Positions 1-64,000 of a stretch of 64,000 nucleotides of DNA are shown in pieces. The position numbers were made by a program, and so were the translations under genes. Origin of the DNA: an uncultured Solirubrobacterales bacterium (GTDB lineage: Bacteria; Actinomycetota; Thermoleophilia; Solirubrobacterales; 70-9); assembly GCA_963751815.1 (NCBI GenBank), contig CAVVVY010000009.1:9578-73577 (forward strand), read 5' to 3'. Numbering within the stretch: position 1 is the stretch's first letter; each line of letters starts with the position of its first letter. The notes beneath the pieces were generated by a model, which was not told the DNA's origin, ran no database searches, and saw nothing but the letters and a program-made list of their open reading frames with translations.

Positions 1-1855
1 GGCCCGGTCAGCTGGGTCCGAACCCCCTTCGCCCCCGCTTCCTGGACCGCCGCCCTGCCCGGCCGCGTCAGCTTGATCGGGACGGGGGTCGTCCCCGGGC
101 CGGGGACGCTGAACTGCGCCCGTCCGATCTGGGCCCGCTTGGCGAAGCTGCGCCCGTTGCGCTTCGAGCTTGACCCGGGCGATCAGCCTGACCACCCCGG
201 TGCATCCGGCCGGGCTCGGGCAATGCACCATCACCAGCGCCGCGCCGCGCCGGACCCTGACGTTGCGACCGGCGTTCGGGAGGCGGTAGATCGTGATCGT
301 CCCGGCGGCGCTGCCGGTGTTGCCGAGGTTGTCGGCGGTGAGGATCGAGATCGGGTAGGTGCCGGGACTGGCGAAGGTGTGCTCGACCGAGCTCCCGGCG
401 GCGCCCTCCCCCCCATCGCCGAAGTTCCAATCGATCGACCTCACCGGAGACCAGTTCTCGAAGGTCGCGGCGGCGAACCGGACCGGCTGGCGGACCGTCG
501 CCGCGGCCGGGATCGAGAGCGACGGGAAGGTCGGGCCGGCGCCGTCGAAGCCGGCCGCCTGGACGATCGTGTTGGCCCCGTTTTCGCGCGACCAGATCGC
601 GGCCCCGTCGCCGGTCGCGCCGACCGCGAGCTGCGGTTCGAGTGAGCTGAAGCCGAGCTCGGACAGTTCATCGATCCCGGTCCAGGCGCCGCCGGCCGGC
701 TTCGTCCGGCCGTCGATCACCGTCGGGCTGGCGCTCGAGCGGGCCCAGGCGGCCTCGGCGTTCCCGCGCGGGTCGATCACGACATGGGGAGTGACGACGG
801 TCTGGGTCAGGCCCGGCTGGGTGAGGTCCTGGGTCGGCTGCCAGGCGCCGCCACCGGGCTTCTCGCGCGACTCGATCGAGGTGTACGGCCCCGCCGATCC
901 GAGCGACCAGACCGCGATCGCCCGCCCTCCGGCCAACGCCACGTCCGGTTCGGTCGCGTCCTCGCCGGCGCCGGTCAGATCGAGCGCTTCGAGCCAGTTG
1001 CCGCCGGGCGCCATCTCGGCCGCCTGCACGGTCGCCGCGCTCCCGACCGTGCGCGACCAGACCGCGACGGCGCCGCCGCCGGGGTCGACGGCGATCTGCG
1101 GTTCCTTCGCGTCGCCGCCGGCTTCGGAGAGGTCGTCGGCGGCGGCCCAGGCGCCGCCGCTCGACCTGAACGCCGCCTGGGCGATCGTGTCGGTGCCTTC
1201 GAGGCGGGTCCAGACCGCGACCACGTTGCCGGCTCCGTCGGCGGCCAGCTGCGGTTCCTTCGCGTTCTCGCCTTTGGCGGAGAGGTCGACGGGTTTGGAC
1301 CACGGCGCCTCCAGCCGACGGACGCGAGGAAGGCGCTCTGGACGATGGTGTTGAAGCCGTCGGACCGCTGCCAGACGGCGACCGCGCGACCCGCCGAATC
1401 GATCGCGACCTGGGGTTCGCCCGCGGTTTTTTCGGAGTCCGAGAGGTCGACGCACCGGCGTCCAGGCGCCGCCGGCCGGCTTCGAGGCGCCCTGGATGAC
1501 GACGTGGGCGCCGTTGGTCCGCGCCCAGACGGCGACCGCACTCCCGCCCGGGCCGATCGCGACCTGGGGTTCGGTCGCGCTGCGGCCCACCGCCGAGAGG
1601 TCGACGGGCGGAGTCCAGCCGCCGCCGGCCGGGCGCGAGGAGGCCTGGATGATGAAGTCCGAGCCGTTGCTGCGACCCCAGACGGCGACGGTGTCGCCGC
1701 CGGCGTCGACGGCGACCTGCGGTTCGACCGCATCGCGGCCCGGCGCCGAGAGGTCGGTGGGCGCCAGCCAGGCCGGAGCCGCCGCGGCCGGACCGGCCGA
1801 CGCCAAGGATGGCCAGCACGCCCAGCGCGATGAAGGTTGCCGCGCGCCTGATCAT
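1..1855 (-). pseudogene. Secreted repeat protein with ~50-aa propeller-like units and a C-terminal PKD-like domain. The 3' end lies beyond the window and there are at least 5 frame changes.
   Basis: ATG at 1855 overlaps the stop of 1852..2658 (ATGA). The N-terminus MIRRAATFIALGVLAILGV looks like a signal peptide. Hand translation of the minus strand shows a unit (P.DLS..G..A.EPQVA....G.AVAVW.R..G...IVQA) repeated at least 7 times while hopping between all three frames. Examples are DSEKTAGEPQVAIDSAGRAVAVWQRSDGFNTIVQSAF at ~1440-1325, then WSKPVDLSAKGENAKEPQ from ~1300. Positions 420-301 encode GDGGEGAAGSSVEHTFASPGTYPISILTADNLGNTGSAAG, which is PKD-like. The frame stays open to position 1, so the gene is absent from the ORF track. 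Confidence 0.6.
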
Positions 1856-2658
1856 GCCCCGCCGGCTTTTACCCGGCAGGAGCGGGTCAGCGTCGCCGAC
1901 AGCTCACGCCCGTCCTCGAAGGCCATTTCCGCGAAGACGAACGGAAAGAAGGCCTTCTTGAGGTCGCCGGGAGCCTCGCACGGGGCGGACAGATAGGTCC
2001 GGTGCTGGCCGTGGAAGGTGTAGTTGCGATGGAGACGGAGGCTGATCCGCTTGAGGAAGCCCCAGCGGGTCAGCCCTGGTGGTGAAACGCCGTGCAGGAC
2101 GGTGCTGTACTTGCCCTTGGTGTGGCGGACGTCGAAGACGATGACGTTTGCGTTCGGGGCCGGGTCTTCGCCGTAGACGTGGGCGAGGATCGTCTCGTGC
2201 CCGTGTTCGAACCCGTTGAAGGCGGTGATGCTGCCGTGGGTCGGCGAGCGCGATTGTTCGGGGAAGGTGCTCCTCGCCCGGTAGGTCCCGGTGCCGACCA
2301 GCGCGTCGCGGCACTCTTCGAGGGCCTGCTTGCGCGAGGCGGCGATCAGCTCGCCCTTCTTGCACCGCGGCAGGCCGCGCGTTTCGAGGTGGCCGTTGCG
2401 GTTGAGGGCGAGCGTGATGCTGCTCAGCGACGGCGGGTCGTCGCCCTTCAGCGTCCTCACCTTGCCGTCCATCCAGACGGTGATCGGCGCCAGTTCGTGG
2501 CGGGGCAGCGCGACCGGTTCGATGCCGCCGCTGAAGTTGACGAAGAGGTTGCCCTTCGAGGTCAGCTCCGCTCTCGCGAAGGTCGCCATGACGCCGGCCA
2601 GCACGAGCACAGCCGCCCCCAGGGCAAACGCCCTCCCTTTGCCTGACAGTCCTCTCAT
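1852..2658 (-). CDS. Secreted hypothetical protein, paralog of 8706..9536 (the F family)
   Basis: Intact 268-aa ORF with signal peptide MRGLSGKGRAFALGAAVLVLAGVMATFA. It aligns along its length with the 8706..9536 product: GGIEPVALPRHE vs GGIKPRKLPRDE, CRDALVGTG vs CGDSLVGRG, YLSAPCEAP...TRSCRV vs YLNASCPVP...VRSCRV. Its stop overlaps the next start (ATGA). Confidence 0.75.
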   Translation of the reverse strand: MRGLSGKGRAFALGAAVLVLAGVMATFARAELTSKGNLFVNFSGGIEPVALPRHELAPITVWMDGKVRTLKGDDPPSLSSITLALNRNGHLETRGLPRCKKGELIAASRKQALEECRDALVGTGTYRARSTFPEQSRSPTHGSITAFNGFEHGHETILAHVYGEDPAPNANVIVFDVRHTKGKYSTVLHGVSPPGLTRWGFLKRISLRLHRNYTFHGQHRTYLSAPCEAPGDLKKAFFPFVFAEMAFEDGRELSATLTRSCRVKAGGA

Positions 2659-2709
2659 CCCCCCGCCGAATGATAGTCGCGGAGCGGAATTCCGGGGCGG
2701 ATTCTCAGA

Positions 2710-3557
2710 TCAGAGACCGGCCGCCTCGGCGAGCAGGTCGATCTGGTCGATCTCGGCGCTGCAGGGGAAGAAGGTGAGCTCGTCGCAGCCGGCCTCGCGG
2801 TAGCCGTCGATCTGCTGCCGGACGGCGTCGGCGTCGGTCGCGGCGCCGGCGATGATGAACCCCGCCACCTCCTCGCCGAGCCAGGCGTAGTAGTGGCCGA
2901 GGTCCCTCCGCGCGTTCTCCTCGGCCTGCTCGCCGAGCGAGTAGTAGGCGATCGCCAGCGTGCGCGCCTCGCCGCTGCGGCCGGCCTCGCTCCAGGCCGC
3001 GCGCGCTTTCGGCGCCAGCTCGGCGAACTGTTCGAACCCGGTCGCTCCCTGGATCCAGCCGTCGCCGAACTTGGCGACCCGCTCGAAGGCCTTGTCGACC
3101 TGGCCGCCGATGATCAGGCTGCGGCGGAGCATCGACCGTGGGGCCGACCCCGCCGTCCTTCCAGGCCGCGGTGAGATCGGTGAGGAGCTGGTCGAAGAGG
3201 CGACCGCGTTCGCCGGTCTCGACGCCGCTCGCCTCGTAGTCGTCGTCGCGGGCGCCGAGGCCGATCCCGAGCGTGAGGCGGCCGCCCGAGAGCGCCTGAA
3301 CCGACTGGGCCTGCTTCGCCAGCAGCGGCGCGTTGGAGCGAAGCGGCCCGAGCAGAACCGCGGTGAGCAGTCCGATCCGCTCGGTCACCGCCGCCGCGGC
3401 GGCGAGCGCCGTCAGCGGCTCGTAGCTCTCGTAGAGAATCCGGTCGAGGGTCCCGAGGCTGGAGAAGCCGCGCTGCCTCCGACCGCTTCGCCCACTCGAC
3501 GATGGCGTCACGATCGGCGCCGGGGATCATGTTCGGAAGACCGATGCCGATGTCCAA
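2710..3557 (-). pseudogene. LLM-class (luciferase-like) F420-dependent oxidoreductase with two frame changes
   Basis: ORF-track pieces 3114..3557, 2705..3511 and 2710..3132 read consecutively as one LLM protein. The segments are MDIGIGLPNMIPGADRDAIVEWAKRSEAA, then GFSSLGTLDRILYESYEPLTALAAAAAVTERIGLLTAVLLGPLRSN...GGRLTLGIGLGARDDDYE, then LIIGGQVDKAFERVAKFGDGWIQG...CDELTFFPCS. Frame changes fall near ~3470 and ~3130. Confidence 0.75.
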
Positions 3558-5578: not shown

Positions 5579-6471
5579 GTGCGATGGCTCCCGGTCCTCC
5601 TCGGCACCCTGCTGTTGGCGCTCGTCTCCGCTGCCCCGGCGCCGGCCGCGATCGAGCAACAACTCCGAAGACCCGGTCGTCGTCATCGCCGGCGACGTCG
5701 AGATCGAACCCGAAGAGGTCGTCGATGAGGATCTTTCTCGTCAACGGCCACGCGCAGGATCTTCGGCCGGGTCGACGGCGACGTCGTCGTCGTCGACGGT
5801 GACCTCGTGCTGCACGGGCAGATCGACGGCAATGTGGTAATGGTTGCCGGCCGCGGCCCATCTCCTGCCCGGGTCCAGCGTCGGCGGCGACATCACCTAC
5901 GGCGACGAGGCTCCTCGAATCGCCCGCACCGCGCAGGGTCGGAGGGGATGTTCAGAAGGAGACCTGGTCTGACGTCGTCGGCCTCTACTCGATCGTCGGC
6001 GCCTTCGTCCTCTGGCTGGCGGTCGGCGTCTCCGCTGCTGATCCTCGGGATCCTCCTGTTGCTCATCGCCCCGCGCGCCGCCGACGCGGTCTTCGAACAG
6101 GCACAGGGCGGTTCTGGACGGCGGTCGGGATCGGGGTCGGGATGCTGATCGCGGTCCCGATCGCGATCTTCGTCGCCGCGATCACCCTGGTCGGCCTGCC
6201 GCTCGCGATCGGCCTCGGCCTCGCGGCGCTGCCCTTTGCGGCGATCGCCTATGTGACGGCGGCCTGGGCGCTCGGCCGGGTCATGGTCAGGCCGCCGCGG
6301 GGCCGGATCCTCGCCTTCCTCGCCGGTCTCGCGATCCTGCGGCTGCTGGCGCTCGTGCCCGCGATCGGCCTGCTCGTCGGGCTCGGCGCGGTGATCGTCG
6401 GCATCGGCCTGCTCGGCGCCGCTATCGGGGCGGCTCGCGAGCCGGCCGTTGCTCATACCCCCGGCAGCTGA
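5579..6471 (+). pseudogene. Signal peptide, bactofilin-like beta-helix repeats and a polytopic membrane domain in one gene, with at least 5 frame changes
   Basis: GTG at 5579 gives VRWLPVLLGTLLLALVSAAPAPAA. Other frames then give DPVVVIAGDVEIEPEEVV, GRVDGDVVVVDGDLVLHGQIDGNVVMVAGR, SSVGGDITYGDEAPRIA, and LLILGILLLLIAPRAADAVFEQAQGG. The intact tail is ORF 6142..6471 (MLIAVPIAIFVAAITLVGLPLAIGLGLAALPF...). Confidence 0.45.
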
Positions 6472-8705: not shown

Positions 8706-9536
8706 TCAGCGGACGCGGCAGCTGCGGACCGACTCGGTGACGATCTTCTCGCCGCCGGCGAAGCTGTAGGTGGCGCGCGCGAAGGAGAGGAAACCGGCCG
8801 AGAACCCCTCCGGCACCGGGCAGGAGGCGTTCAAATAGCTTTTCCGGTTGCCGGCGTGGTTGTAGATCCGCGAGACCTTGACCGCGAAGCTCGCGACGTG
8901 CGGCCAGGGCCCGACCGAGCGCCTGATCGTCGTCACCAGGACGGTCCGGTTGTCTTCGTTGCGGACCGTGAACGGGATCACGAACGAGGTCGGCGGATCC
9001 ATCGAGTAGGCGTGGGCCCAGACCGCCGGGCGCCCGGCTTTCGTGCGTCCGTTGAAGGTCAGCAGGTTGGCCCTGACCCGGAACGCCGGCTGGTTGGGGA
9101 CGAATATCTGCGCCGAGAGCTCGCCGCGGCCGACCAGCGAGTCGCCGCATGCTTCCGAGCGCCTGTTTGCGTCGTCGTGCTGGTCAGGCGTTCGCGGGGG
9201 CAGACCGGGAGGCCGTGGGTGTTCATCGCGCCCCGCCACGCGAGTTCGAGCCGGATCCAGTTGACCCGTCGGGATCGGCGAGCCGTCGGTGGTCTGGACC
9301 CCTCCGGAGAGGAAGACCGAGACCGGGACTTTTTCGTCTCGCGGAAGCTTCCGCGGCTTGATCCCGCCGTTGATCATCGCGATCACGTTTTCGCGCTGGG
9401 CGCGCTCGGCGCCGGCGGTTCCGGCCCAGCTCGCGACGGCGAGGAGGACGACCAGAGTCAGAGCGAGGCGAGCGCGTTTAGCCCGCAGCAAACGGACGAC
9501 CAGATGAACCTTCGGCCCGCCGTCCGGCTCGACCAT
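8706..9536 (-). CDS. Operon gene F: secreted or signal-anchored hypothetical protein, paralog of 1852..2658. The ORF is open but contains a compensated frameshift pair.
   Basis: 276-aa ORF with a hydrophobic N-terminus, LALTLVVLLAVASWAGTAGA. Between ~9262 and ~9175 a different frame matches the paralog much better: VNWIRLELAWRGAMNTHGLPVCPRERLTS aligns with SITLALNRNGHLETRGLPRCKKGELIA. The listed frame there gives QLDPARTRVAGRDEHPRPPGLPPRTPD. Confidence 0.7.
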   Translation of the reverse strand: MVEPDGGPKVHLVVRLLRAKRARLALTLVVLLAVASWAGTAGAERAQRENVIAMINGGIKPRKLPRDEKVPVSVFLSGGVQTTDGSPIPTGQLDPARTRVAGRDEHPRPPGLPPRTPDQHDDANRRSEACGDSLVGRGELSAQIFVPNQPAFRVRANLLTFNGRTKAGRPAVWAHAYSMDPPTSFVIPFTVRNEDNRTVLVTTIRRSVGPWPHVASFAVKVSRIYNHAGNRKSYLNASCPVPEGFSAGFLSFARATYSFAGGEKIVTESVRSCRVR

Positions 9537-9676: not shown

Positions 9677-12426
9677 TCAGTGCCGCTTGCGCTTGGCGCC
9701 GCTTCGGATGCGACCGCAGGCGGTCTTCGGCGACCGTCTGGCTCGTTTCCCGACCGCTCTGGGCCGTGTAGGCGACTGCGATCTTCGGCGGCGAGGCGCA
9801 GAGGCTTCTTGTGTTGACCAGGTAGCCCTGTTTGCCGCCGAGGAGGTCGAGCTTGAAGTAGCCGATCGGCGCGTCCGGGATCACCGGGACGACCGTGGTC
9901 AGCTTGCCGCCCTTCGAGAAGGATTCAGCCTGCGGAACAAGCCGGACCTGGCCGTCGAGGATGAAGGCGAGACGAGGCAGCTTGCCGAAGCCCGGAGACC
10001 GCGTAGGCGGGGCCGCGTCAGCGGCGCGTCGAGCAGCGGCGTCCTCGTTTCGACCGTTCCGATCGGCTGGCGCCCGGCGCAGGATTCGGCTGCGAGCTGG
10101 GCTTTCGAGCAGATGTTGCCGAGGTGGCGCTGGTCGATCGCGAAGGCTTTCGGCAGGGTGACTGCGAGCGACTTGATGTTGGCGTCGCCGTTGCGGGTGC
10201 GGAGCTCGAACCGCATCCGCGGATTGCGGCTCCGCTTGGTGTCCTTGCGGGTGCCGAGCTGGCGGACGGTCATGCTCGGCTTGAACGGCAGGGCCGAGCA
10301 GTTGACCGCGTTGAAGGACGAGGAGAAGTCGGTAACCGTCCCCTGGTCGCCGATGCCCTGCGAGTCGACCGAGAAGGTCGAGCAGTTGGTCGGGTTGATC
10401 GTGAAGTTCGGCTTGTCGATGTTGACCTCGATCGAGCGCATCCGGATCGGGACGCCCGCCGATGATGCTCGGCACCGTGTCCGAGACCGCGCTCACCTGG
10501 GCGGTCAGCGGGTCGACGTGGAGGGCGACGCGGACGACGACGACGCCGTAGTCATAGGGCCCGGCCAGCGCCGGCGTGACCGCCGCCAGGCTGAGCGGCG
10601 CCCCCTTGAACGGGCCCGGAGAGGTACATCTTCCCGATCGCGTGGAACGGGTGGCCGCCGGGGCCGCGCGGCGACGTTGGTCGTGCCGATCTGGGACGAG
10701 GCGGGGCAGCTCGGGGTCGCCAGCTCGGCGCGGCCGAGCCTCTGGGCGGCGGCGAGGATCGCGGATTCCGGGCAGTAGCCGATGCCGCGCAGGTCGCCGG
10801 TGAAGCCGGGCGGCATCCTGAAGTTGAGGTCGCCGAGGAACTGGTCGCCGTCGTCGCGGTCGAGTTTGAGGTGGAAGTTGGAGAAGGCGCCGGCGTTGGG
10901 TTTGAGGTCCCCGCCTCGAGCCGCGGCTGGAACGGGCGGACCTGGCCCGGGCAGGGGCGCCGTGCGGGCCCTGGCGAGGCCGAAATGCTGCGTCGAGTCG
11001 ACGTCGGGAAGCGATTTCGTTCCAGGGGAAGAAGTGGCGCGCGAGGTCGTAGATCGTGCAGAGGGTCGGGGTCGCGACGAGGCCGCGATCGGAGGCGAAG
11101 AGGTGGATGTCGAAGTCTTCGAACGGGACCTGGGGCAGGTCTTCGAAGTAGACCGTGATCTGCCCGGTCTGGGGGTTCGGTCTGACCGACCCGACCAGCT
11201 TGGCGTGCATGCCGAACCCGTCGAAGATCATGAAGAGCCGGTACTGGTCGCCGGGCTTCGGTTCGCCGAAGTAAAGCGAGCCCTTGAGGCGCCCGTCGAG
11301 CGTCGGCGAGCCGACGCTGAGGGTCCCGATCTTGGCGTTGTCGGGGCATTTGGCCGGGCCCTCGGACCCGAAGTTGGCCTGCGCGTCGGTGCAGGCGCTC
11401 TGGCCGTCGGCGGCGTCCGGGTTGATCGTCAGCCCTTGCGGGAAGGTGACGACCGCGGACTTGATCTCCGAGGGTGAGGCGGCGAATCCCTCGAACTGCT
11501 GGCGCTGAGATTCAGGTCGAGGCCCGACGGCCGAATCGGTTTCGTTGGTCGTCGGACTGGCCGTGGAGCAGCGGTTTGAACGTCTCCGCTCAGCATCCGG
11601 TCATCTCCGGATAGGTGCTCTCGGCATGGGAGAAGTACGCCGGGGTCCTGGTAGGTCTCGACCAAGAGTTTGGTCACGAGGTTCATGGCCGCTGCAGTGG
11701 GTCGGGTTGTCGGTGAACGGCTTGTTGGGAATGCTCGCTTTCGTCGGCGACGGTGATGCAGCTTGCGTCGGCCAGCCCGGGGCAGCCGGCGGATTGCCCG
11801 GGGAGCCCTTGGCGAACCGGTCGTCGTTGTGACTGAGATCGGCGGGGAAGCCCCAGATCGTCAGGTTGACGCGCGGCGAGCGGTGTCAGCTGGGTGATGT
11901 CGGAGACCTTGAAGCGCAGCCCGTAGTCGGTCGCCGTGCGCACCGTGATCGGGATCGCGATCGGGATGTCCAGGGTCGGGACGATGAACTCGATCAGCGC
12001 CGTCTGATCCGCTTGGGGGAGATGTCGTAGAGGGGCGCCGTGCCGAGAAGGTACCGGAGTAGTCGGAGTACCGTGATCAGGCCGAGCTGGGAGTTGGCGG
12101 GCATTGATCGAGGGCGAAGTCCGCGGCGGTGCAGTTGGTGATCGCGTTGATGTTGCCGAACAGGCCCTGCGGGGCGTTGAAGGTGATGTTTTTGGCCGCC
12201 TCGGGGTTGCCGGGATTTTCGAGCGAGAAGTTCGTTTCCAGGTCGGGATGGCCGCCCGCCTGGGTGTAGGGCCCTCCCCCTGCGGGTCGGTCATCGTTGT
12301 CACGAATGATTCGATCTGCTCGCTCGCCATGACCGGCGCGGCCACCGCCAATGAGAGCGCGACTGCCGCCAACAGGGCTACGGTGATCGTTCTTGGGATC
12401 ATTCTTGTGGTCTCCTTGCCGATCAT
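9677..12426 (-). pseudogene. Operon gene E: paralog of gene C (QAGGHPD / Cys-loop family), heavily frameshifted with well over 10 frame changes
   Basis: ATG at 12426 lies 8 nt after the D stop. The signal peptide is MIGKETTRMIPRTITVALLAAVALSLAVAAPVMA. Conserved segments are scattered over all three frames. Examples are IESFVTTMTDPQ, AGGHPDLETNFSLENPGNPEAAKNITFNAPQGLFGNINAITNCTAADFALDQCPPNSQLG, VNLTIWGFPAD and FEGFAASPSEIKSAVVTFPQGLTINPDAADGQSACTDAQANFGSEGPAKCPDNAKIGTLSV. Further examples are MIFDGFGMHAKLVGSVRPNPQTGQITVYFEDLPQVPFEDF, MPPGFTGDLRGIGYCPE, FKGAPLSLAAVTPALAGPYDYGVVVVRVALHVDPLTAQV and PIRMRSIEVNIDKPNFTINPTNCSTFSV. The inferred end is PKTACGRIRSGAKRKRH* (stop at 9677-9679). Confidence 0.6.
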
Positions 12427-17508: not shown

Positions 17509-17531
17509 TGGCTCCCTTGGTCTCAACATGC

Positions 17532-27752: not shown

Positions 27753-27761
27753 GGTGCCAGG

Positions 27762-36369: not shown

Positions 36370-36400
36370 AGGCCCGCCACCGGCGGGCCTCTTCTTTTCT
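36370..36400 (+). terminator. Intrinsic terminator between csp and typA
   Basis: AGGCCCGCC-ACC-GGCGGGCCT forms a 9-bp perfect stem and is followed by CTTCTTTTCT. The T-tract ends 5 nt before the typA ATG. Confidence 0.6.
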
Positions 36401-36405
36401 CCTAG

Positions 36406-38229
<1,824 letters not shown>

Positions 38230-40882: not shown

Positions 40883-40968
40883 TGCTCGAAGCTCCTTCTT
40901 TCGGGTGGGAGTAGTGCCGATTGACTGGTCAGTCAACCAAGGCGAAGAGTAGCGAATACCCTTGGCCC

Positions 40969-44464: not shown

Positions 44465-44704
44465 CTAGCGCGGGTTGTGGACCTCGGGAGGCGTGCTCTC
44501 GGTGAGGTTGATCGCGATCGGGAAGAGCAGCGCGCCGATGACGATCAGGGCGATCCCCGCCCCGACGAGCCAGCGGGTGGTCGACATGTAGCCGAGGATC
44601 CCGAGCGCGAACCCGGCCAGGACCATGAGTATGTAGGGGGTGCCGCTGTGCGGCAGCAGCGAGGCGAGGGGCAGGGCGAGCTCGAGCATGGCGGTGACTA
44701 TCAT
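44465..44704 (-). CDS. Small two-TM membrane protein
   Basis: ATG at 44704 gives MIVTAMLELALPLASLLPHSGTPYILMVLAGFALGILGYMSTTRWLVGAGIALIVIGALLFPIAINL... This is the 3' part of the otherwise spurious ORF 44465..45622. Confidence 0.5.
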   Translation of the reverse strand: MIVTAMLELALPLASLLPHSGTPYILMVLAGFALGILGYMSTTRWLVGAGIALIVIGALLFPIAINLTESTPPEVHNPR

Positions 44705-44716
44705 CGCTTGACTCCG

Positions 44717-51169: not shown

Positions 51170-53462
51170 CTCGAGCTCGCCCTCGCGGATCAGCCGGGTG
51201 ATGTCGTCGGCCGGGAGCGGCCGCGAGAAGAGGTGGCCCTGGCCGTAGTCGCAGCCGAGGCGGCGCAGCTCGGAGAGCTGGACCTCGCTCTCGACCCCGA
51301 CCGCGATCGCGTCGAGCGAGAGGGCGCGCGCCATCCCGATGATCGCCTCGACGATCGCCGTCCGCTCCTGCTCGACCCCGAGCCCCTCGATGAAGGAGCG
51401 GTCGATCTTGAGCGCGTCGAAGGGGAAGCGGCTGAGGTAGGCCAGCGACGAGTAGCCGGTGCCGAAGTCGTCGAGGATGAGGCGGACGCCGAGCTCGCTC
51501 AGCGCCTCCAGCGTCGTCGTCGCCATCGCCGACTCCTCGACCAGGATGCTCTCGGTGATCTCGAGCTGGAGATGGGCGGGGTCGAGGCCGGTCCGCGCCA
51601 GCACCTCGGCGACGTTGTCGGCGAGATCGCGGTTTGCGATCTGGCGGGCGGAGACGTTGACCGAGACGTCGAGCGGCCGTCGGTCGGGTCGCTGATCGTG
51701 CCACTCGACGGCCTGGCGGCAGGCGGTCTCCTCGACCCAGCGGCCGATCGGGCCGATCAGCCCGCAATCCTCGGCGACCGAGATGAACTCCTCGGTCTCC
51801 AGCGAGCCCCGCCGGGGGTGCTCCCACCGCAGCAGGGCCTCGAGCGAGACGATCTCGCCGTTGGCGAGGTCGACCAGCGGCTGGTAGTGGAGCCGCAGCT
51901 CGTCGTTGGAGAGGGCATCCCGGAGGTCGCGCTCGACCTCCAGCCGCCGCGCCGCGCGGGCCCGCATCTCGGCGTCGAAGAGCTCGCTGCGGGCGCGGCC
52001 CCGCTCCTTGGCCCGGTACATCGCCGCGTCGGCGTCGCGGATCAGCGACTCGGCCCCGATCGGCTCGCTCCGCGAGGGGCGGCCGACCGCGATCCCGATG
52101 CTGGCGCTGACGAAATGCTCGACGCCCCCCATCGAGTAGGGCTCGGCGAAGGCCGCCGTGACCCGGTTGGCGATCGCGATCGCCTCGTCCTCGTCGGCGA
52201 GGCGGTCGATCAGGATCCCGAACTCGTCGCCGCCGAAGCGGGCGACGATGTCTCCCGGGCGCAGGTGCGACCGCAGGCGAGGGGCGATCGCGCGCAGCAG
52301 TTCGTCGCCGCCGTGGTGGCCGATGCTGTCGTTGACGAGCTTGAAGCTGTCGAGGTCGAGGAACAGGACCCCGACCGGGGTGCCGGCGACGGCGCCGCGC
52401 TGGAGGGCGACCTCGAGCGACTGGACGAAGCTGGTCCGGTTGGGGAGGCCGGTGAGCGAGTCGTGGAGGACCCGGTGGCGGAGGGCGCGGTCGGTCGCGT
52501 GGCGCTCGACCGCATCGGCGAGGACGTTGGCCGAGGCCTGGACGAAGTGGACGTCCTGCGGCGTGAACTGATTCGGCTCCCGCGAGTGGATGTCGAGGAC
52601 GCCGAACGGGCTGCTCGCGGCCGTCGATCGGGACCGCGAGGCTGCTGCGGACGCCCATCACCCGGAGCGCCGGCGGCATCGAGAAGCGCCCCTCGGTCTC
52701 CCAGTCGTCGACGATCACGTGCAGGCCCGACTCGAGCGCGGCTCCCGCGTGTGAGTTGCGGGCCGCCGAGGCCCGGCGGCTGCCGTCGGTTCCCTGGATC
52801 TCGGCTCCGGCGAGCATCTGCAGGCGGCGGCCGTCGCGGCCGACCTCCCAGATGCAGGCGCAATCGACCCCGTCGATCGCGACCATCAGCGAGACCGCCT
52901 CGTCCATCAGCGCATCGGACTCGCCGTGCTGGAGGGCGTGGCTCGAGAGGCGGGCGACGGTCGCCTGCTGGGCGACCGCCCGGCGCAGCTCCTCCTCGAC
53001 GATCTTGCGCTCGGTGATGTCGTAGAGGACGCCGTGCCAGACCTGGACGCCATCGGGGTCCGGTTCCAGCACCGCCTCGTCGAGGATCCAGACGACGTCG
53101 CCCTCGCGGGTGTGCATCCGATAGTCGATCGGGCGGCCGTTGCGAAGGTTCCCCGCTTCCTGTTCTTGCTCCTGGGCGAGGGCCCGCTCGCGGTCCTCGG
53201 GATGCAGCTGGCGGGCCCAGAGGGTCGGGTCGGCGACCCATTCCTCCGGCGTGTAGCCGAGGATCTCCTCGATCTGGGGGCTGACGTAGCGCCAGCGGCC
53301 GTTCTCCCCCACCTCGCAGGCGTAGACGATCGCCGGCAGGCGCTCGACGAGGCGGCGATAGTCCTCCCCGGCCTCGGAGATCTGGTCGAGAAACTCGCTC
53401 ACCCGGTCGTCGGGCCAATGCTTTCCGGCGGGCTCACCGTCCATGTATCTGACTATCGGCAT
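51146..53462 (-). pseudogene. PAS-GAF-GGDEF-EAL signalling protein with one frame change at ~52610
   Basis: The N-terminal part is ORF 51132..53462 up to ...SLAVPIDG, with PAS (VYACEVGENGRWRYVSPQIEEILGYTPEEW) and GAF domains. By hand translation the sequence continues SSPFGVLDIHSREPNQF...LTGLPNRTSF...RFGGDEFGIL (GGDEF), into ORF 51146..52132, which has the EAL motifs (EALLRWEHPRRG, LQLEITES, LILDDFGTGYSSLAYL). Confidence 0.8.
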
Positions 53463-53519: not shown

Positions 53520-54409
53520 TCAAACGCCGGTCAGCCATGACCCGGCGAGGCCGCGGAATGGCGCGTACGGCACGAAGAACTCCTCGACCTCCTCGACGGT
53601 CGCCCGGCGCCCGAGATGGGCGAGCTTTCCCACCAGCTTGAGGAACATCAGGTCGCCGGCGGGAAGCGAGTCGGGTTCGCCGCGGCCGAAGAGGCCCAGG
53701 CACTGGACCGTCCAGGGCCCGATCTCGGGAACCCGCAGCAGCCGCGCGTCGGCGACCGGCTCGCCGGGGTCGCAGCGGCCGGCGGCGATGTCCCTGGCGA
53801 CCGCCCGCAGCGCGATCGAGCGGCCGGCGGACAGCCCCATCGACTCCAGTTCGGCCGGCGCCCGGCCGGCGATCGTCGCCGGCCCCGGGACGTCGCGGAG
53901 GGCCCCGGAGTCGCGGGTCATCCGCGGGCCCCAGCGGCCGACGATCCGGCGCTGGATCGTGGCCGCGCGGCGGCTCTCGATCAGCTGCTTGACGATCGCC
54001 CAGGCGAGCGCCTCCCAGGGCCAGGGGCGGCGGTGGGGACGGCGGTGCGGACGGCGGCGCAGGAGCGGGCCGAGCAGGGGGTCGCGGCGGAAGCCGCGGA
54101 AGAACTCGCCGAGGTCCTCGTCGACCCCGAGCGCGAAACGCATCCGCTCGATCGCCACCCGCAGGTCCTCGTCCGCCGCCGGCGGCGCCGACGGTCGCAT
54201 CCCGGCCGCCCGGTTCGGCCCGGAACTTGACCCGCCGAGCCTCCGACCTGCCAGGCCCGGACCAGCACCGGGCTGCCGCCGACATCGAGGAGCCGGGTGG
54301 CGACCCCGCCCTCGATCCGCATCACCCGGTCCTCGCCGCCGAAGCGCGGCATCAGGAACGGCGAGGGGGGCGTGACCTCGACCTCGAGAGCCGAGGACCT
54401 GGCGCTCAC
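53520..54409 (-). pseudogene. HhH-GPD superfamily DNA glycosylase (AlkA-like), frameshifted around 54200-54240
   Basis: The N-terminal domain is in ORF 53981..54409 (PSPFLMPRFGGEDRVMRIEGGVATRLLDVGGSPVLVRAWQ). The catalytic part is in ORF 53520..54200 (WEALAWAIVKQLIESRRAATIQRRIV...LLRVPEIGPWTVQCLGLFGRGEPDSLPAGD). Confidence 0.7.
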
Positions 54410-54723
54410 CGACCCAGGAGGTGAACGTCGACCAGGAACGAGCGGCTGGCGACGACGTTGGTCGGCCGCTGCTCCTTGCGACGGCGCAGACGGCGCGGGC
54501 TCGAGCCGCGGGAGGCCGCGGCGCCGACCGCCCTGACGGCGGCGACCGTCGCCGCCCCCGCGAGCACTCCGCCGGCGGCGGCGAGCGCGGCGGTGCGAAC
54601 CTCGGTCCGGAGGACGGGCGAGCCGGCGGGCCGGTAGGCCTCGAGGGCGCGGACCGGCTGCTCGGGCCCGGCCTCGACGTCCTCCTCGGCGAGGACCTCG
54701 CCCTGGACTTCGATTTCGCTCAA
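54406..54723 (-). CDS. Hypothetical protein
   Basis: 105-aa ORF with a 4-nt overlap with the downstream glycosylase gene. It has an acidic N-terminus and an Ala-rich hydrophobic stretch, with no recognisable motif. Confidence 0.4.
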   Translation of the reverse strand: MSEIEVQGEVLAEEDVEAGPEQPVRALEAYRPAGSPVLRTEVRTAALAAAGGVLAGAATVAAVRAVGAAASRGSSPRRLRRRKEQRPTNVVASRSFLVDVHLLGR

Positions 54724-56023: not shown

Positions 56024-56817
56024 CTAATGGCTGTGGTCGCGGCCCCGGACCGTCAGCCAGGAATCCCAGGTGATCTTGAGGATGACCGTGGTGATTCCGA
56101 GACCGATGCAGCGGGTCCGCAATCGGGAACCCGATGGAAACGACCAAGGCGCTCGCCACGACCGCGAGGCTGACGTAGGAATCTGCCCTGGCGTGATTGC
56201 CGTCAGCGATCAGCGCCGGGCTGTCGAGCCGACGGCCTGCGCTCGTCCGGATCGAAGCCGCGATCCAGTTTGCCGCCGAACCCGATCAACCCGGCGATGG
56301 CGAGCGCGAACAGATGGGTCGGTTCCTCCGGGTGAATCAAACGAGCAACCGCCTCCACCCCGGCGACGGCAGCCGAGGCGAAGATTGCCGCGACGACGAA
56401 TAGCCCGGCCATCCGCTCTGCTCGACCGGAACGGAGCAGGAATGCAACCCCGAGAGGGATCGCCGTACTCGCGTCGCCAAAGTTGTGGATCAGGTCGGCG
56501 AGGAGAGCAACGCTGCCGCTGGCGAGGAAGATCGTCAGCTGAGCCACGGCAGCCACGCCGAGGACGGCCAGCGACAACCCGACAGCCTTCAGGCCCTCGC
56601 GGGAGCGTTTGATGCTCGGGTCAATCAGGCCGTGCGAGTGCCCATGGCCCTGTCCCCCGCCTTCGTGGGTGTGGGGGCCGTGATGGTGGTGAGAATGGGT
56701 GAGTCCCCCGTGCCGGTGCAGGTCGCCGCTCAGCTCTTCATATGTCCCGGTGCCCACGCTCCAGAGGTTAGACCTGCCATCCGCGTCCCGATCCCCTGCC
56801 TGCCTGCCGGCTCCCAC
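56024..56817 (-). pseudogene. Cation diffusion facilitator (CDF) transporter with a His-rich N-terminus and two frame changes. It ends without a cytoplasmic C-terminal domain.
   Basis: ORF 56203..56817 gives HSHHHHGPHTHEGGGQGHGHSHG...LLADLIHNFGDASTAI. An extra A (GGCAAACTGG) at ~56275 shifts the frame to NWIAASIRTSAGRRLDSPALIADGNHARADSYVSLAVVASALVV. An extra C (CTGCATCGG) at ~56115 shifts it to IGLGITTVILKITWDSWLTVRGRDHSH*, with the stop at 56024-56026. Confidence 0.7.
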
Positions 56818-56844
56818 GGCGGCGGCAACCTACACTTTCCACCC

Positions 56845-58102
56845 ATGAGCGAGGCAACCAGGGCCGCGTCCGACGTATTCGAGAAGGCTCGCAGCCACGA
56901 TCGGCTCGAGCAGCTCGAAGCGGCGAAGGAGCACGACCTGCTCCCCTACTTTCGGCTGCTGACCTCGGCGGCGGGGCCGGTGGTCGAGATGGAGGGGCGC
57001 GAGACGATCATGCTCGGCTCCAACAACTACCTGGGCCTGACCGGCGACGAGCGGGTCAAGCAGGGGGCCCGCGACGCCCTCGAGGCGTTCGGCACCGGCG
57101 TCACCGGATCGCGCCTGCTGAACGGGACCACTCCACTGCACCTCGAGCTCGAGCGCGAGCTGGCGGAGTGGATGGGCGAGGAGGACGCGATCGTCTACAC
57201 GACCGGCTACCAGGCCAACGTCGGGTGCATCGGCGCGATCCTCGAGCCGGGCGACACCGTGATCTGCGACTCCGGCGACCACGCCTCGATCCTCGACGGC
57301 TGCCGCCTCTCCGGGGCGAAGCTCCGACCGTTCCGCCACAACCGGATGGACAAGCTGGAGAAGATGCTCGGCCGCGCCGCCGAGGACGGCGGCGGCGTCC
57401 TCGTCGTCGTCGACGGGGTCTTCTCGATGGAGGGCGACGTCTGCGACCTGCCGCGGACGGTCGAGCTCTGCCGGGCCCACGGGGCACGGCTGCTTGGTCG
57501 ACGAGGCGCACGGCGCCGGCGTCCTCGGCCGGCGCGGTGCCGGCGCCTGCGAGCTCTTCGGCCTCGAGGACGAGGTCGACCTCCGGATGGGCACCTTCTC
57601 GAAGAGCCTCGCCTCCTGCGGCGGCTTCATCGCCGGCCCCGCCGACGTGGTCGAGTACCTGAGGATCTCGTCGCGCTCCTTCGTCTTCAGCGCCTCGGCC
57701 GTCCCGGCCGCGGTCGGCGCGGCGCTGGCGGCGCTGCGGGTGATCCGCAGCGATGGCCCGGCCCTGTTCGAGAAGCTGCTCGCCAACGCCGAGTACCTGC
57801 GCGAGGGGCTCCGGGCTCTCGGGCTGCAGGTCGTCGAGCCCGGCTCGCTCGCCGACGGCTCGGTGGTGACGACTCCGGTGGTCCCGGTCGTGGTCGGCGA
57901 CGACTGGCAGGCGGTCCTGCTCTGGAAGGCGCTGTTCGAGAAGGGCGTCTACACCAACGTCGCGATCCATCCCGCGGTCCCGCCCGGCGGCGCGCTGCTG
58001 CGGACGAGCCTGATGGCGACCCACGAGACCGAGCACCTCGACGCCGCGCTCGAGACGATCGCCGGGGTCGTCGCCGACTTTCCCGATCTCCCGCGGACCT
58101 GA
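56845..58102 (+). pseudogene. PLP-dependent alpha-oxoamine synthase (BioF/KBL/SPT family) with one frame change at ~57495
   Basis: ATG at 56845 gives MSEATRAASDVFEKA...IMLGSNNYLGLTGDERV...YTTGYQANVG...DSGDHASILDG. CTTGGTCGACGAGGCGCAC contains one extra G, and the sequence resumes as VDEAHGAGVLG...MGTFSKSLAS (PLP lysine) in ORF 57494..58102. Confidence 0.8.
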
Positions 58103-58744: not shown

Positions 58745-59155
58745 CTAGCCGCGGAGGCCGCCGACCTTGTAGGAGAGGCCGCCCGAGGCCCGACGGAAGG
58801 CGGCCCGCAGCCCCAGAAAGGCGGCGATGAAGGCGACGACCCCCGCCGCCAGTGAGACCGCCAGGACGAGGCCGCCGAGGTAGAGAAGGCCGCCGGTGAC
58901 GATCACGAACACCGTTCCCGCGAGCAGCGTCGAGTGGGAGCGGTAGCCGGCGAAGTGCTCGCGGGCCGAGACCTCGAGGCCGCCGAGCGCGCCGAGGACG
59001 ATGCCGAGCCCGAGCGCGGTCGGGTTGCCGCCGATCAGCCCGATCGCGAGCAGGATGATCCCGGCGAGGATCGTCAGCTCGGCGAGGGGGAATTTGCCCC
59101 ACGGCGCCGGCGGGCGCTCATCCTTCTGACCTGCCTTATCGCTCAACGGCCGCAA
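58745..59155 (-). CDS. Membrane protein, hypothetical
   Basis: Intact 136-aa ORF with four hydrophobic segments (LTILAGIILLAIGLIGG, LGLGIVLGALGGL, GTVFVIVTGGLLYLGGLVLAV, AAGVVAFIAAFLG). Confidence 0.55.
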   Translation of the reverse strand: MRPLSDKAGQKDERPPAPWGKFPLAELTILAGIILLAIGLIGGNPTALGLGIVLGALGGLEVSAREHFAGYRSHSTLLAGTVFVIVTGGLLYLGGLVLAVSLAAGVVAFIAAFLGLRAAFRRASGGLSYKVGGLRG

Positions 59156-59631
59156 GCCGTCCGGATAACGGGCATCCGGACGAGACCTTGACCCGCCACC
59201 AGCCCATCAGCATCCCGAGCGGTCCGAGTCGCGGGAGCGAGTGCCAGTGCCCACAGCCGGGCTCGCCGATGTCGTTGCGGGATATCCGCAGCCAGCGGTG
59301 CTTCTCCGGCGCCGCCAGCATCTGCTCGAGCAGCTCGCGATTCGAGGTCTCGAGATCGGCCCGGGCCGAGAGCTGGCGACGGCCTTCGGCAACCTGGTCG
59401 GCGAGGGCGTCGCGAACCGACTCGAGCTCTCCCAGGCCCAGGGCCCGGGGCTCGTCTGGAGACGGCAGGCACGCCGACGTCGACTCGGAAGCGGGGGAAG
59501 GCCTCGGCGACGATCGCGGCCAACTGCCGCTCCAAGCGTCCGATCTGGCGCCTCAACTCCGCGCGAGCCAGAAGCTCGCTTCCGCCTGAAAGAGGCTCAG
59601 TCCGGCTATCTCGATAAAGCAGATCCGGCAT
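59136..59631 (-). pseudogene. Conserved hypothetical protein (coiled-coil plus C-terminal GEPGC.HWH...WWRVK.SSGCP motif) with one frame change near ~59460
   Basis: ORF 59143..59631 gives the N-terminus (LARAELRRQIGRLERQLAAIVAEAF). The frame of ORF 59136..59321 is open upstream and encodes PRALGLGELESVRDALADQVAEGRRQLSARADLETSNRELLEQMLAAPEKHRWLRISRNDIGEPGCGHWHSLPRLGPLGMLMGWWRVKVSSGCPLSG. Confidence 0.5.
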
Positions 59632-59701: not shown

Positions 59702-60374
59702 TCAGGCCGACTCGAGCGTCGCCGCGGTCATCCAGAGGGCCTCGTCGATGGCGATCTGGGGGACGCCGCCGACCCCGATCGCGGCGATCGCGATCCGGCG
59801 CGTCACCTGGGTCACCGCGCTGCTCTCGGAGGTGGCGCCGAAGAGCAGGCCGACGGGCGCCCCTTCGTCGGCGATCACGAGGGTGCCGTGCGGAAGCTCC
59901 CCGGGGCGCCCGGGCAGCGCCTCCGCCGGGGCCGAGTCGCGGATGCAGAGCTTGCCGTGGACCTGGTCGGCGTCGAAGAGCCGCAGCGCGACGCCGGTCT
60001 CGATCGTCGCGATCGTGACCGCGTCGGTCGGCAGGCCCGCGGGCTTTGAAGGCGCCCTCGCGGAGCCGCTCCAGCGCCAGCTCCTCGACCGGGGTCCGGG
60101 TCCGGTCGGGGTCGAGCCCGATCTGGCGGAAGAAGGCGCGGTAGGCCCACGGGATCGGCCGTTCCCGCATCCGGATCGCGTGGGAGCCGTAGAAGCGGTC
60201 GGAGATGTCGCGGAGGCGGCGGCGGACGCCGTCGGGGCTGCGACCGGGCCTGCCGTCGACGGCGATCGAGGAGATCGAAAGGCCGGGGAACTCGGCGGCC
60301 ACATGCGGGGCGACCCAGCCCGGCTCGGGGGCCGGCTCCCAGCCGAGGTCCGATTGGGCGGGGTCGACTCCCAT
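59702..60374 (-). pseudogene. B3/B4 tRNA-binding-domain protein (PheT-related) with one frame change near ~60040
   Basis: ATG at 60374 gives MGVDPAQSDLGWEPAPEPGWVAPHVAAEFPGLSISSIAVDGRPGRSPDGVRRRLRDISDRFYGSHAIRMRERPIPWAYRAFFRQIGLDPDRTRTPVEELALERL. The sequence continues in ORF 59702..60304 (GLPTDAVTIATIETGVALRLFDADQVHGKLCIRDSAP...GTLVIADEGAPVGLLFG). Confidence 0.65.
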
Positions 60375-60375
60375 C

Positions 60376-61035
60376 TCAGCCCCGTTCCGCGGCGGCGGTC
60401 GCCTGCAGCAGCGAGTCGAGCCGGGCCCCGAGCTGCTGCGCGGTGAGGATGCCGGTGCTGGCGCTCTGCAGGGTCCCGCCGGGATAGACGTAGGCGAAGG
60501 TCGGGCAGCCGCCGACCCGGTAGAGGCTGGCGACCGCGCCGTCGCGGTCATAGCCGACCGGCATCTGCCAGTGGTGTTCGTGGATCAGGTCGCGGACCGT
60601 GTCCCGATCGTCGCGGACGTTCAACGAGAGGAAACCCACCCGCCCACCGTAGCGCCTGAAGGTCGCCTCGACCGAGTCCTGCTCGGTGACGCAATCGCCG
60701 CCGCCCTTGGTGAACCAGAACGAGATCAGCGACGGGCGCCCGAAGAGGTCGCAAACGCGGATCGCTTCCGGTTCGGAGAGCCGGCAGGCCGGCTTGCGTT
60801 GGGCGTCCTCGGGGCAGGGGACCTCCGAGGTCGAGCAGTCGTCCTGGGCGATGTTCGCGTCGCCTTCGAGCTGGCCGGCGGCGTCGGGGACGGCGAACTC
60901 CGGCAGCGGCCAGCGCTCCGGGCGCTGTTCGAGACCGAGGATCCCCTCTCCCCCGTCGCCGATTTTGCTGATGACCGCGACCACGATGACGGCCAGGAAG
61001 ACCAGGCCGACGAGGATCGTGTACCTAGAGGTCAC
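60376..61035 (-). CDS. Membrane-anchored thioredoxin-fold (TlpA/redoxin-like) protein with an atypical active site
   Basis: The N-terminal TM segment is MTSRYTILVGLVFLAVIVVAVI. The thioredoxin-fold core is RPSLISFWFTKGGGDCVTEQD...GFLSLNVRDDRDTVRDLIHEHHWQMPVGYDRDG...YRVGGCPTFAYVYPGG. GGDC stands in place of C..C. Confidence 0.65.
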   Translation of the reverse strand: MTSRYTILVGLVFLAVIVVAVISKIGDGGEGILGLEQRPERWPLPEFAVPDAAGQLEGDANIAQDDCSTSEVPCPEDAQRKPACRLSEPEAIRVCDLFGRPSLISFWFTKGGGDCVTEQDSVEATFRRYGGRVGFLSLNVRDDRDTVRDLIHEHHWQMPVGYDRDGAVASLYRVGGCPTFAYVYPGGTLQSASTGILTAQQLGARLDSLLQATAAAERG

Positions 61036-62775: not shown

Positions 62776-63585
62776 TCACCTGATCGTCTGCAGCTCTGGG
62801 TTGGTCGCGAGCAGGGTCTGGGTGAAGACGTAGTTGAACGCGAAGACGCCCATGAACGAGATCACCACCGCCTGGTTGACGGCGCGGCCGACGCCGGCGG
62901 CGCCGCCGGACGCGGTCATCCCCTTGTAACAGCAGACGACCGAGATGATCGCCCCGAACAGGGTGCACTTGAGCACCGACCCCCAGAGGTCGGTGATCGA
63001 GGCGTTGGAGAAGAGGGTGGCGAAGAACCCGCCGAGCGGCTGGTTGTAGAGGATCTCGGCGAGGATGCCGCCGCTGATCCCGAAGATCAGGGCGTAGATG
63101 TCGAGCAGCCCGGTGATCAGCATCAGCGCCAGGAAGCGGGGGACGACGAGGTTCTTGATCGGGTCGACGCCGAGCACCTGGAGGGCGTCGAGCTCCTCGC
63201 GGATCTTGCGGGCGCCGAGGTCGGCGGTGATCGCCGTGCCGGCGACGCCGGCGACGACGACCGCGGTGACCGCCGGGGCGATCTCGCGGATCGCGGCGAG
63301 GACGAAGAAGCCGCCGAGCCGGTCGAGGGCGCCGAAGAGGTTGAGCACGTTCGCCGCCTGCAGGCCCGGGGCGCCGAAACAGATCGCCACCGTCGAGACC
63401 AGCAGCGGGAACCAGCAGAGCTGGAGCGCGAAGAGGAACTGGCCGATGAACTCCTCGCCATACGGGTAGGGCGGGCGGATCGCGGAAATGATCGTGCGCC
63501 CCGTGAGGAGCATCATTTCGCCCACCTGTTCGAAGAACGACTTGGCGGGCAAGAACCTCCTGCCTATCGATGCGGCTGCTTCCAT
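62776..63585 (-). CDS. MlaE/YrbE family ABC permease
   Basis: Intact 269-aa ORF with AGVAGTAITADLGARKIREELDALQVLGVDPIKNLVVPRFLA. Confidence 0.85.
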   Translation of the reverse strand: MEAAASIGRRFLPAKSFFEQVGEMMLLTGRTIISAIRPPYPYGEEFIGQFLFALQLCWFPLLVSTVAICFGAPGLQAANVLNLFGALDRLGGFFVLAAIREIAPAVTAVVVAGVAGTAITADLGARKIREELDALQVLGVDPIKNLVVPRFLALMLITGLLDIYALIFGISGGILAEILYNQPLGGFFATLFSNASITDLWGSVLKCTLFGAIISVVCCYKGMTASGGAAGVGRAVNQAVVISFMGVFAFNYVFTQTLLATNPELQTIR

Positions 63586-63744
63586 CAGCTCTCCTCCGGC
63601 GGGTGAGCCACTTCCACGTGGCTCCGCTCAGTGGACTGAGTTTATGGGATGGGATCGGCGCAACTGTTGAGATAGGGCTAACCCAACCGCGGGCGGCGGC
63701 GAGGTCGCTGAGGCCGCAAAAACACATGGTATGTTCCGGCCGCT

Positions 63745-64000
63745 TTGGAGCTCTCGGGGGGGAACCGCCTCAGAATCCGCCGGCGTTCCCGCATCGGCGC
63801 CGCCGTCACCCTGGCCGCCGTGGTCGGGGCCGCGACCCTCGCCGGTTGCGGCGGCTCCTCCTCGGACGAACCGAGCGGAACCCGCGAAGTCAGGGTGGTG
63901 AACGCGGAGTTCCCGGCGAAGCAGAGCCTCGGCCAGACCACGCTGCTGCAGCTCGGGGTCAGCAACGAAAGCGAAGACACGATCCCCGGCCTCACCTTCA
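63745..64000 (+). CDS. Lipoprotein, hypothetical (partial, runs off the right edge)
   Basis: The hand-translated frame from TTG 63745 gives (M)ELSGGNRLRIRRRSRIGAAVTLAAVVGAATLAGCGGSSSDEPSGTREVRVVNAEFPAKQSLGQTTLLQLGVSNESEDTIPGLTF, which contains a lipobox (LAGC). A 7-G run at 63756-63762 makes the start uncertain. Confidence 0.5.
   Translation, partial: MELSGGNRLRIRRRSRIGAAVTLAAVVGAATLAGCGGSSSDEPSGTREVRVVNAEFPAKQSLGQTTLLQLGVSNESEDTIPGLTF

Follow-up and report, generated by a model that had tools for sequence, protein, structure and literature searches.

Why are so many reading frames interrupted in the 64-kb stretch of DNA analysed here as a whole (the window)? Frameshift-aware alignment against intact orthologs, paralogs and a metagenome contig 91–96% identical to the window enumerated about 60 frame-breaking single-base indels, and comparison with closely related genomes found the orthologs intact; this metagenome contig, JGI L059 (91–96% DNA identity), carries every gene uninterrupted. 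The initial annotation, which had named both comparisons as checks, had described widespread frame changes at many loci, and nearly every specific point of that description was reproduced. We thus confirmed that the broken reading frames are real in the deposited sequence. An Rfam scan of the window returned no match. The affected genes of its left end are the following:

1..1855, minus strand: PKD-domain protein gene, with five one-base insertions (166, 1303, 1314, 1452 and 1809)
2713..3557, minus strand: LLM (Bac_luciferase) oxidoreductase gene, with two one-base insertions (3119 and 3475)
5646–6447, plus strand: bactofilin-like gene, with about six frame changes (insertion type at 5718, 5755, 5855, 5934 and 6040; deletion type at 6108)
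8709..9536, minus strand: gene F (275 aa), with three one-base insertions (9153, 9169 and 9269)

The PKD-domain gene extends 42 nt past the window start and encodes 632 aa in close relatives; its PKD domain is a Pfam match, and a frame caller changes frame at the same insertion points. A reading of 1–1851 as an intact gene, with a single-frame homology coverage of 88–94%, was rejected once frameshift-aware alignment gave the five insertions. The 617-aa single-frame ORF at 1–1851 conceals all five shifts. The ortholog of the LLM gene in L059 is annotated as Bac_luciferase and has 281 aa. Gene F, in which no Pfam domain was found, encodes a protein with 98% identity to its intact L059 ortholog despite its three insertions. 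It belongs to the operon, read on the minus strand, whose other genes are:

9680..12426, minus strand: gene E (916 aa in L059), where events are densest, about 21 single-base indels in all
12434..17470, minus strand: gene D, an Fn3/NHL-type secreted protein, with an insertion at 14171 and events at about 16659–16803 and 16856 (deletion type)
17530..20269, minus strand: gene C, divided by an insertion at about 18196 into ORFs of 758 and 460 aa
20262..24825, minus strand: gene B (NHL and Fn3, about 1520 aa), with insertions at about 24245 and 24030 and a deletion-type event at about 21215
24818..27145, minus strand: gene A (775 aa), without frame changes

Gene E carries insertions at 9994, 10017, 10454, 10615, 10667, 11014, 11527, 11558, 11592, 11637, 11685, 11752 and 11875, and deletions at 10904, 10956, 10970, 11499, 11585, 11785, 12015 and 12095. 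The ORFs at 13881–16448 and 12434–14332 are parts of the single gene D, and the event at 18196 in gene C was placed with more than 15 independent paralog references. From an ORF listing and GC3 phase the operon had seemed free of breaks and the statement on gene E mistaken, a view overturned by the paralog references, by L059 and by the placement of gene E at 12426 to 9680. The resulting numbers agree with those reported before: five changes in 1..1855, six in 5646–6447, three each in genes B, D and F, and 21 in gene E. The rest of the window contains intact and affected genes:

27705..29058, plus strand: double-TetR regulator, with an insertion at about 28476
29190..30655, minus strand: G1/G2 tandem paralogs, a stretch about 97% identical, with four single-base indels in G1 (about 29495–29551) and one in G2 (about 30400)
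30610–32742, plus strand: RecD2 helicase, no events
33444–35987, minus strand: S8 peptidase, no events
36406–38229, plus strand: TypA/BipA, no events
39652..40928, minus strand: acyl-CoA dehydrogenase, with a single insertion close to the C-terminus (39739)
40966..41419, plus strand: small conserved gene, in which the frame changes at about 41224 (four extra bases)
44673..47026, plus strand: AAA ATPase gene and VWA CoxE-like gene, fused, with a one-base loss near 45600
51149..53456, minus strand: PAS-GAF-GGDEF-EAL protein, with an insertion at about 52610
53523..54600, minus strand: HhH-GPD (AlkA-like) glycosylase, with insertions at about 54207 and 54235
56027..56817, minus strand: cation-efflux (CDF) transporter, with insertions at about 56108 and 56271, placed with a single paralog of 80% identity as the sole reference
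56828..58099, plus strand: class I/II aminotransferase (alpha-oxoamine-synthase-like), with an insertion at about 57493
59139..59631, minus strand: conserved 171-aa gene, with an insertion at about 59460
59705..60584, minus strand: B3/4-domain protein, with an insertion at about 60038 (GG to GGG)

Events were thus found at each of the loci already named as frame-changed, that is, the LLM oxidoreductase, the double TetR (where a second event, at 28106, was seen with two references only), the GGDEF-EAL protein, the AlkA-like glycosylase, the CDF transporter, the alpha-oxoamine synthase and the B3/B4 protein. The exception was the lipoprotein at 43267, whose ORF (43256–44455, minus strand) aligns to its ortholog in one frame. 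The zero counts given for typA, recD2, the S8 peptidase and gene A also held, and 30610..38229 forms a clean stretch without any frame change. On the other hand, the changes at 39739, about 41224 and 59460 and the one-base loss near 45600 had been overlooked. This last event takes a stop codon out of frame and in this way fuses the AAA ATPase and VWA CoxE-like genes, which occupy separate frames in five relatives, into an artefactual 849-aa ORF at 44477–47026. The single-base differences quoted for G1 and G2 were located in the sequence, and the two copies differ by five single-base indels in about 260 nt against about seven substitutions. A placement of G1 and G2 as inverted copies at 27.7–29.1 and 29.1–30.7 kb was discarded, since these segments have no similarity and the copies stand in tandem at 29.2–30.6 kb. 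For the right half of the window, a metagenome scan for a near-identical reference gave a best match of 86% identity, on short contigs.

Is the phenomenon restricted to this window? A self-trained six-frame caller found candidate shifts on all 19 contigs of the assembly, at 1.9–6.2 per 10 kb, with a total of 1,206 candidates (951 insertion-like and 255 deletion-like), compared with 0.36–0.93 per 10 kb when the same caller was applied to five high-quality relatives (271 kb). Among 165 orthologs (185 kb) taken from a 400-kb sample of the complete relative G009, 71 (43%) were affected, with 107 insertion-type and 24 deletion-type shifts or 0.71 per kb, and this proportion of disrupted genes is around 6–10 times that of the high-quality relatives used as controls. 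The same pipeline run between high-quality genomes gave 0.095 events of insertion type and 0.093 of deletion type per kb. Insertions in this genome reach 0.58 per kb, about sixfold the control, whereas deletion-type events stay at the control level, and the excess is therefore almost purely made of one-base insertions. Over 12 kb aligned with L059, the private one-base changes of the window are 26 insertions and 8 deletions. The same signature appears in G006, an assembly of few contigs that is 75% complete (10 insertion-like to 1 deletion-like candidates in 20 kb), and is missing from five high-quality congeners.

These figures bear on the possibility that all or most of the frame changes are real and reflect a massive inactivation of genes in the organism or in the consensus of its population. 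Two observations would fit it: the insertion rate drops with rising gene conservation, from 0.97 to 0.17 per kb, as purifying selection predicts, and the rRNA operon is nearly indel-free, since about 3 private insertions would be expected in its 4.7 kb and only one (in the 16S gene) is present. However, inactivation would have to extend to 43% of the sampled orthologs, including enolase, MetH, Mfd, KdpB, an FtsH-like protease and elongation factor G:

C14:46768–48879: EF-G, the only ortholog in the genome, with five shifts in 2.1 kb

The segments of this EF-G show 83–96% identity and are free of stops, and the next best match is only 42% identical. In general, multiply affected genes keep 83–98% identity in every segment. 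No independent nonsense mutation was found in the window or in the ortholog sample, every flagged in-frame stop adjoining a shift as an artefact of the alignment path. Bacterial pseudogenes show a deletion bias, the opposite of the insertion-only excess seen here, where deletion-type events amount to noise. With the signature also recurring in low-completeness G006 and in none of the five high-quality congeners, we consider massive inactivation very improbable.

Could the frames instead be restored in vivo by programmed ribosomal frameshifting or some other recoding mechanism? Frames do resume with conserved sequence past each shift, which is nothing specific to recoding, but at these sites the orthologs in three to five relatives, and in the 96% identical contig L059, each run through as one unbroken ORF. 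Moreover, no shared sequence motif was seen at the insertion sites, and as many as 21 sites would have to be recoded in one gene. This explanation is hardly credible, even less so than wholesale gene loss.

The initial annotation had read the changes as indel-type sequencing error, which is strongly supported, and had proposed from their uneven density that some loci are genuine pseudogenes. The unevenness itself is real (dispersion of about 2), and a mixed origin, with isolated events being mostly assembly errors and the densest loci (gene E, 5561–6427 and perhaps G1) being true pseudogenes, deserves consideration. Gene E has about 8 events per kb, compared with 0.7 per kb for the genome as a whole, is uniquely rich in one-base deletions as well, and has diverged by 13% from its L059 counterpart against 3–4% in the neighbouring genes; it also belongs to a family of up to 13 copies, a redundancy that would tolerate the loss of one. 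The segment 5561..6427 (plus strand), which hosts the bactofilin-like gene, is missing at the same site from all relatives compared (L059, G010 and G005) and shows six shifts in 0.8 kb. Nevertheless, gene E retains a substitution pattern of purifying selection. Third codon positions account for 63% of the substitutions in gene E, and for 61%, 79% and 85% of those in the PKD gene, the LLM gene and gene F, respectively; in none of them was the even spread over codon positions of relaxed selection seen. Once its frames are followed, the gene E protein keeps 84% identity, and its lone flagged stop (11590) sits between two adjacent shifts. The five insertions to one deletion of 5646–6447, with no in-frame stops, reproduce the genome-wide artefact signature. 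EF-G is a similar hot spot and cannot be a pseudogene. The uneven density belongs to the error process because essential genes show it too, and the pseudogene part of the proposal did not stand in view of the clustering in EF-G, the 98% identity of gene F, the third-position bias of gene E and the lack of independent nonsense mutations. A mixed origin thus appears unlikely. We give a similarly low probability to the idea that the hot spots are truly heterogeneous loci, for example hypervariable alleles of the multi-copy Fn3/NHL family of the operon (including gene E), or a decaying relic of recent insertion at 5561–6427; if so, the indel clusters would represent real microdiversity or pseudogenes over a uniform background of errors.

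What determines where the events fall? The association with same-base runs noted previously, a usual trait of consensus errors from nanopore or PacBio CCS data, was not borne out: isolated bases account for 65% of the well-placed insertions against 56% expected by chance, and in the L059 comparison only 8 of 26 insertions lie inside a base run. Other candidate determinants were set aside, namely multi-copy DNA (0.46 vs 0.49–0.59 per kb), GC content (a weak correlation, rho 0.19) and an alternation of dirty and clean multi-gene blocks (lag-1 correlations of at most 0.1, adjacent genes being uncorrelated).

Taken as a whole, the frame changes are very probably consensus errors of the deposited assembly rather than mutations of the organism, an origin in sequencing or consensus building that we infer from the sequence data. 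The assembly (about 2.9 Mb) looks like a long-read assembly, probably metagenome-derived and inadequately polished, because it has only 19 contigs and a full 16S gene mid-contig, yet is 77% complete, where congeners of comparable size reach 93%. The proposed error process would insert single extra bases at about 0.5–0.7 per kb, at essentially random positions outside homopolymers and with few deletions; it would affect every contig, with moderate clustering and at a lower rate where conservation is highest. An extra base would each time divide a gene into at least two ORFs and occasionally join two genes. The clustering may stem from uneven coverage or polishing, or from reads of several strains piled up together. 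Several facts count against this explanation. An insertion spectrum outside homopolymers is unlike the usual nanopore pattern of homopolymer deletions; the rRNA operon has fewer private insertions than expected; the conservation trend is also what selection on real mutations would produce; gene E, with 8 one-base deletions and its divergence, is unlike its neighbours; and 5561–6427 is a lineage-specific insertion that may be a real relic.

Indel errors that fragment genes have been documented for bacteria and metagenomes assembled from long reads (PMC12007338, ‘Kastor’; PMC9262707, Sereika et al. 2022), and in the Kastor example 23% of the genes were affected, 89% of those by frameshifts only (PMC12007338). 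In those artefacts, as here, few wrong bases create many apparent frameshift-only pseudogenes, marker-based completeness is lowered, and the changes are genome-wide and missing from the accurate assemblies of relatives (PMC12007338, PMC9262707). The errors reported there lie mostly in homopolymers and, with nanopore, are mostly deletions (PMC12007338, PMC9262707), whereas the excess here consists of one-base insertions without homopolymer enrichment. The decay of genomes in host-restricted bacteria also shares with this genome many frameshifted genes at a density that varies by gene. Unlike such decay, the present case shows no nonsense mutations, no deletion bias, affected essential genes, a preserved pattern of purifying selection and intact close relatives.

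With around 40% of its genes affected, gene calls, pseudogene counts, completeness and findings of split or fused genes from this genome are unreliable unless frames are traced across the insertions, and long open frames can mislead at 70–74% GC. The same caution applies to G006. The frame changes are almost certainly an ordinary artefact that tells nothing new about the organism; they bear on the quality of its annotation, not on its biology.

In the window, frame changes were enumerated with a protein-to-DNA aligner that allows changes of frame, written for this analysis, against three kinds of reference. All the evidence is comparative. The references were intact orthologs in five high-quality congeners, paralogous ORFs from the remainder of the studied assembly (G000) and from a relative (G006), which resolve the minus-strand operon, and L059, a 91.8-kb JGI metagenome contig found by searching a database with the translation of 1-1851. 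L059, in which every gene is intact, shares synteny and 91-96% DNA identity with the leftmost 12 kb of the window. At the sites listed against orthologs, ORFs that are single in three to five relatives fall on two frames of the window.

Frame changes in the window
Against relatives' orthologs:
3119, 3475, LLM oxidoreductase
5646-6447, six sites in one gene
39739, acyl-CoA dehydrogenase
~41224, one change
52610, PAS-GAF-GGDEF-EAL protein
54207, 54235, HhH-GPD glycosylase
57493, class I/II aminotransferase
59460, one change
60038, B3/4 protein
Against paralogs:
minus strand, gene A, 0 events
~24245, ~24030, ~21215, minus strand, gene B, three events
18196, minus strand, gene C, one event (>15 paralog references)
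~16856, ~16659-16803, 14171, minus strand, gene D, three events
28476, double TetR, one event
CDF transporter, two events
Against L059:
166, 1303, 1314, 1452, 1809, PKD gene, five events
gene F, three events
gene E, about 21 events

The events number about 60 across the 64-kb window, and the orthologs of the relatives and the L059 genes are intact where the window is broken. The counts of single-base changes proposed by the initial annotation proved right almost everywhere: none in typA, recD2 or the S8 peptidase (minus strand), whose alignments, like those of many other genes, stay in a single frame, or in gene A; three each in genes B and D; well over ten in gene E; and at least five each in 1..1855 and 5579..6471. 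The strings quoted to distinguish G1 from G2 are present, and these tandem paralogs (29.2-30.6 kb) differ by five single-base indels and ~7 substitutions over ~260 nt. Two points were not borne out. Frameshift-aware alignment did not confirm a change in the 'lipoprotein' ORF (43256-44455), and the changes do not favour same-base runs, as 65% of the well-placed insertions lie at isolated bases against 56% expected and only 8 of the 26 private one-base insertions relative to L059 (which come with 8 one-base deletions) lie in runs. A one-base loss near 45600 had been overlooked: an AAA (MoxR-like) ATPase gene no longer has its stop codon in frame and is thus fused with the downstream VWA CoxE-like gene in an artefactual 849-aa ORF (44477-47026), whereas in five relatives the two genes are separate, overlapping and in different frames.

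Because all three frames can stay open at 70-74% GC, the length of an ORF does not show that the gene is intact. In 1-1851 and 978-1851 (74% GC), the three minus-strand frames are all open for several hundred codons, and the 617-aa single-frame ORF of 1-1851, which has a Pfam PKD match, conceals five frameshifts. Gene E had appeared intact from ORF lists and 1-1855 from single-frame coverage; both readings were rejected, given the events found by frameshift-aware alignment, which in the PKD gene are all insertions. Those database homologs of the PKD protein that carry a name are assigned to 'Solirubrobacterales bacterium', a hint of the genome's lineage.

These events are not particular to the window. 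Its density without gene E is ~0.64 per kb, the same as the genome-wide mean. With a self-trained six-frame Viterbi caller, every G000 contig gave 1.9-6.2 candidate shifts per 10 kb (1,206 candidates, 951 of them insertion-like), against 0.36-0.93 per 10 kb in 271 kb of high-quality relatives. In an ortholog sample drawn from 400 kb of the complete relative G009 (165 genes, 185 kb), 71 of the 165 G000 orthologs carried at least one interior shift, with 107 insertion-type and 24 deletion-type events (0.71 per kb). The same pipeline between pairs of high-quality genomes gave symmetric noise of ~0.095 per kb for each type; therefore, what G000 truly has in excess is almost exclusively insertions of one base, at ~0.5 per kb.

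Are these changes errors or decay? The initial annotation had proposed a mixture. Its first component, sequencing or assembly indels, is supported by the comparisons, through the genome-wide spread, the insertion excess and the breakage of essential genes. EF-G, whose sole ortholog (C14:46768-48879; the next-best match in G000 is a 42% paralog) has five shifts in 2.1 kb, retains segments 83-96% identical to the G009 protein with no stop. Also broken are genes that, from their conserved motifs, we take to encode enolase, MetH, Mfd, KdpB and an FtsH-like protease. The in-frame stops that the aligner flagged all adjoin shifts, which leaves effectively no nonsense mutations in 185 kb. Gene F carries three insertions, yet its protein identity to the intact ortholog is still 98%. 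Bacterial mutation and bacterial pseudogenes are deletion-biased, the opposite of an insertion-only excess.

The second component, real decay, is not supported by these data. A real pseudogene at one of two loci, gene E or 5561-6427, seems improbable. Gene E has eight one-base deletions too and is 13% diverged from L059, against 3-4% for its neighbours, but third codon positions take 63% of its substitutions, against about one third under neutral decay. The 5561-6427 segment is not present at this site in L059 or in the relatives G010 and G005. Its ~870 nt, with a bactofilin-like gene whose G005 ortholog sits elsewhere (L010:6821-7813), are inserted between genes adjacent in all three.

Why are the events so unevenly spread? 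The unevenness is real (per-gene dispersion 2.05, p about 7e-14), with no events in 30.6-39.7 kb; since EF-G is also clustered, uneven density alone cannot indicate pseudogenes. Hot spots also lie outside the window, EF-G among them; a membrane-protein gene (G000:C9:83917-84997) carries 10 insertion-type shifts within 1.1 kb. Neither multi-copy DNA nor multi-gene blocks account for the density differences, GC content is only weakly linked to them and no motif was found at insertion sites. The insertion rate falls with gene identity, from 0.97 per kb (<=70%) to 0.17 per kb (>90%), also after control subtraction, and the rRNA operon, with one insertion in 4.7 kb, matches the low end. This trend could arise because the shifts themselves depress measured identity, because polishing or frame correction works better on conserved sequence, from strain mixtures among the reads piled up at variable loci, or from selection, if some events are real.

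The assembly (2.93 Mb, 70% GC) has few contigs (19), resolved repeats, with a whole 16S-23S-5S operon midway along a 189-kb contig, and low marker completeness (only 77%, against 93% for congeners of similar size), and so looks like a long-read assembly with uncorrected indels. A one-base T insertion at position 188 of its 16S rRNA (G000:C8:126445-127990), the one private indel in a comparison of six congener 16S genes, probably reflects the same error process. G006 (6 contigs, 75% complete, no Pfam match for rpoB) has the same signature, with 10 insertion-like changes against 1 deletion-like in 20 kb (L025, G006:C1:620001-640000), which is absent in five high-quality congeners. Long-read indel artefacts are well documented (PMC12007338; PMC9262707), although the usual nanopore consensus error is homopolymer deletion (PMC12007338), whereas G000 has insertions without homopolymer enrichment.

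The minus-strand operon (9680-28000) belongs to a large family of paralogous clusters of lower GC (61-65%) encoding huge secreted proteins of Fn3/NHL/PKD type, with up to 13 copies in G000 (further clusters at C3:331-343k, C4:1-10k, C6:1-13k, C6:92-103k, C12:185-228k, C14:80-136k and C15:39-53k) and many in G006, and largely absent from the other congeners searched. The frame changes themselves represent a common, previously described type of artefact with little biological interest; their importance is as a warning about the quality of all other findings from this genome.
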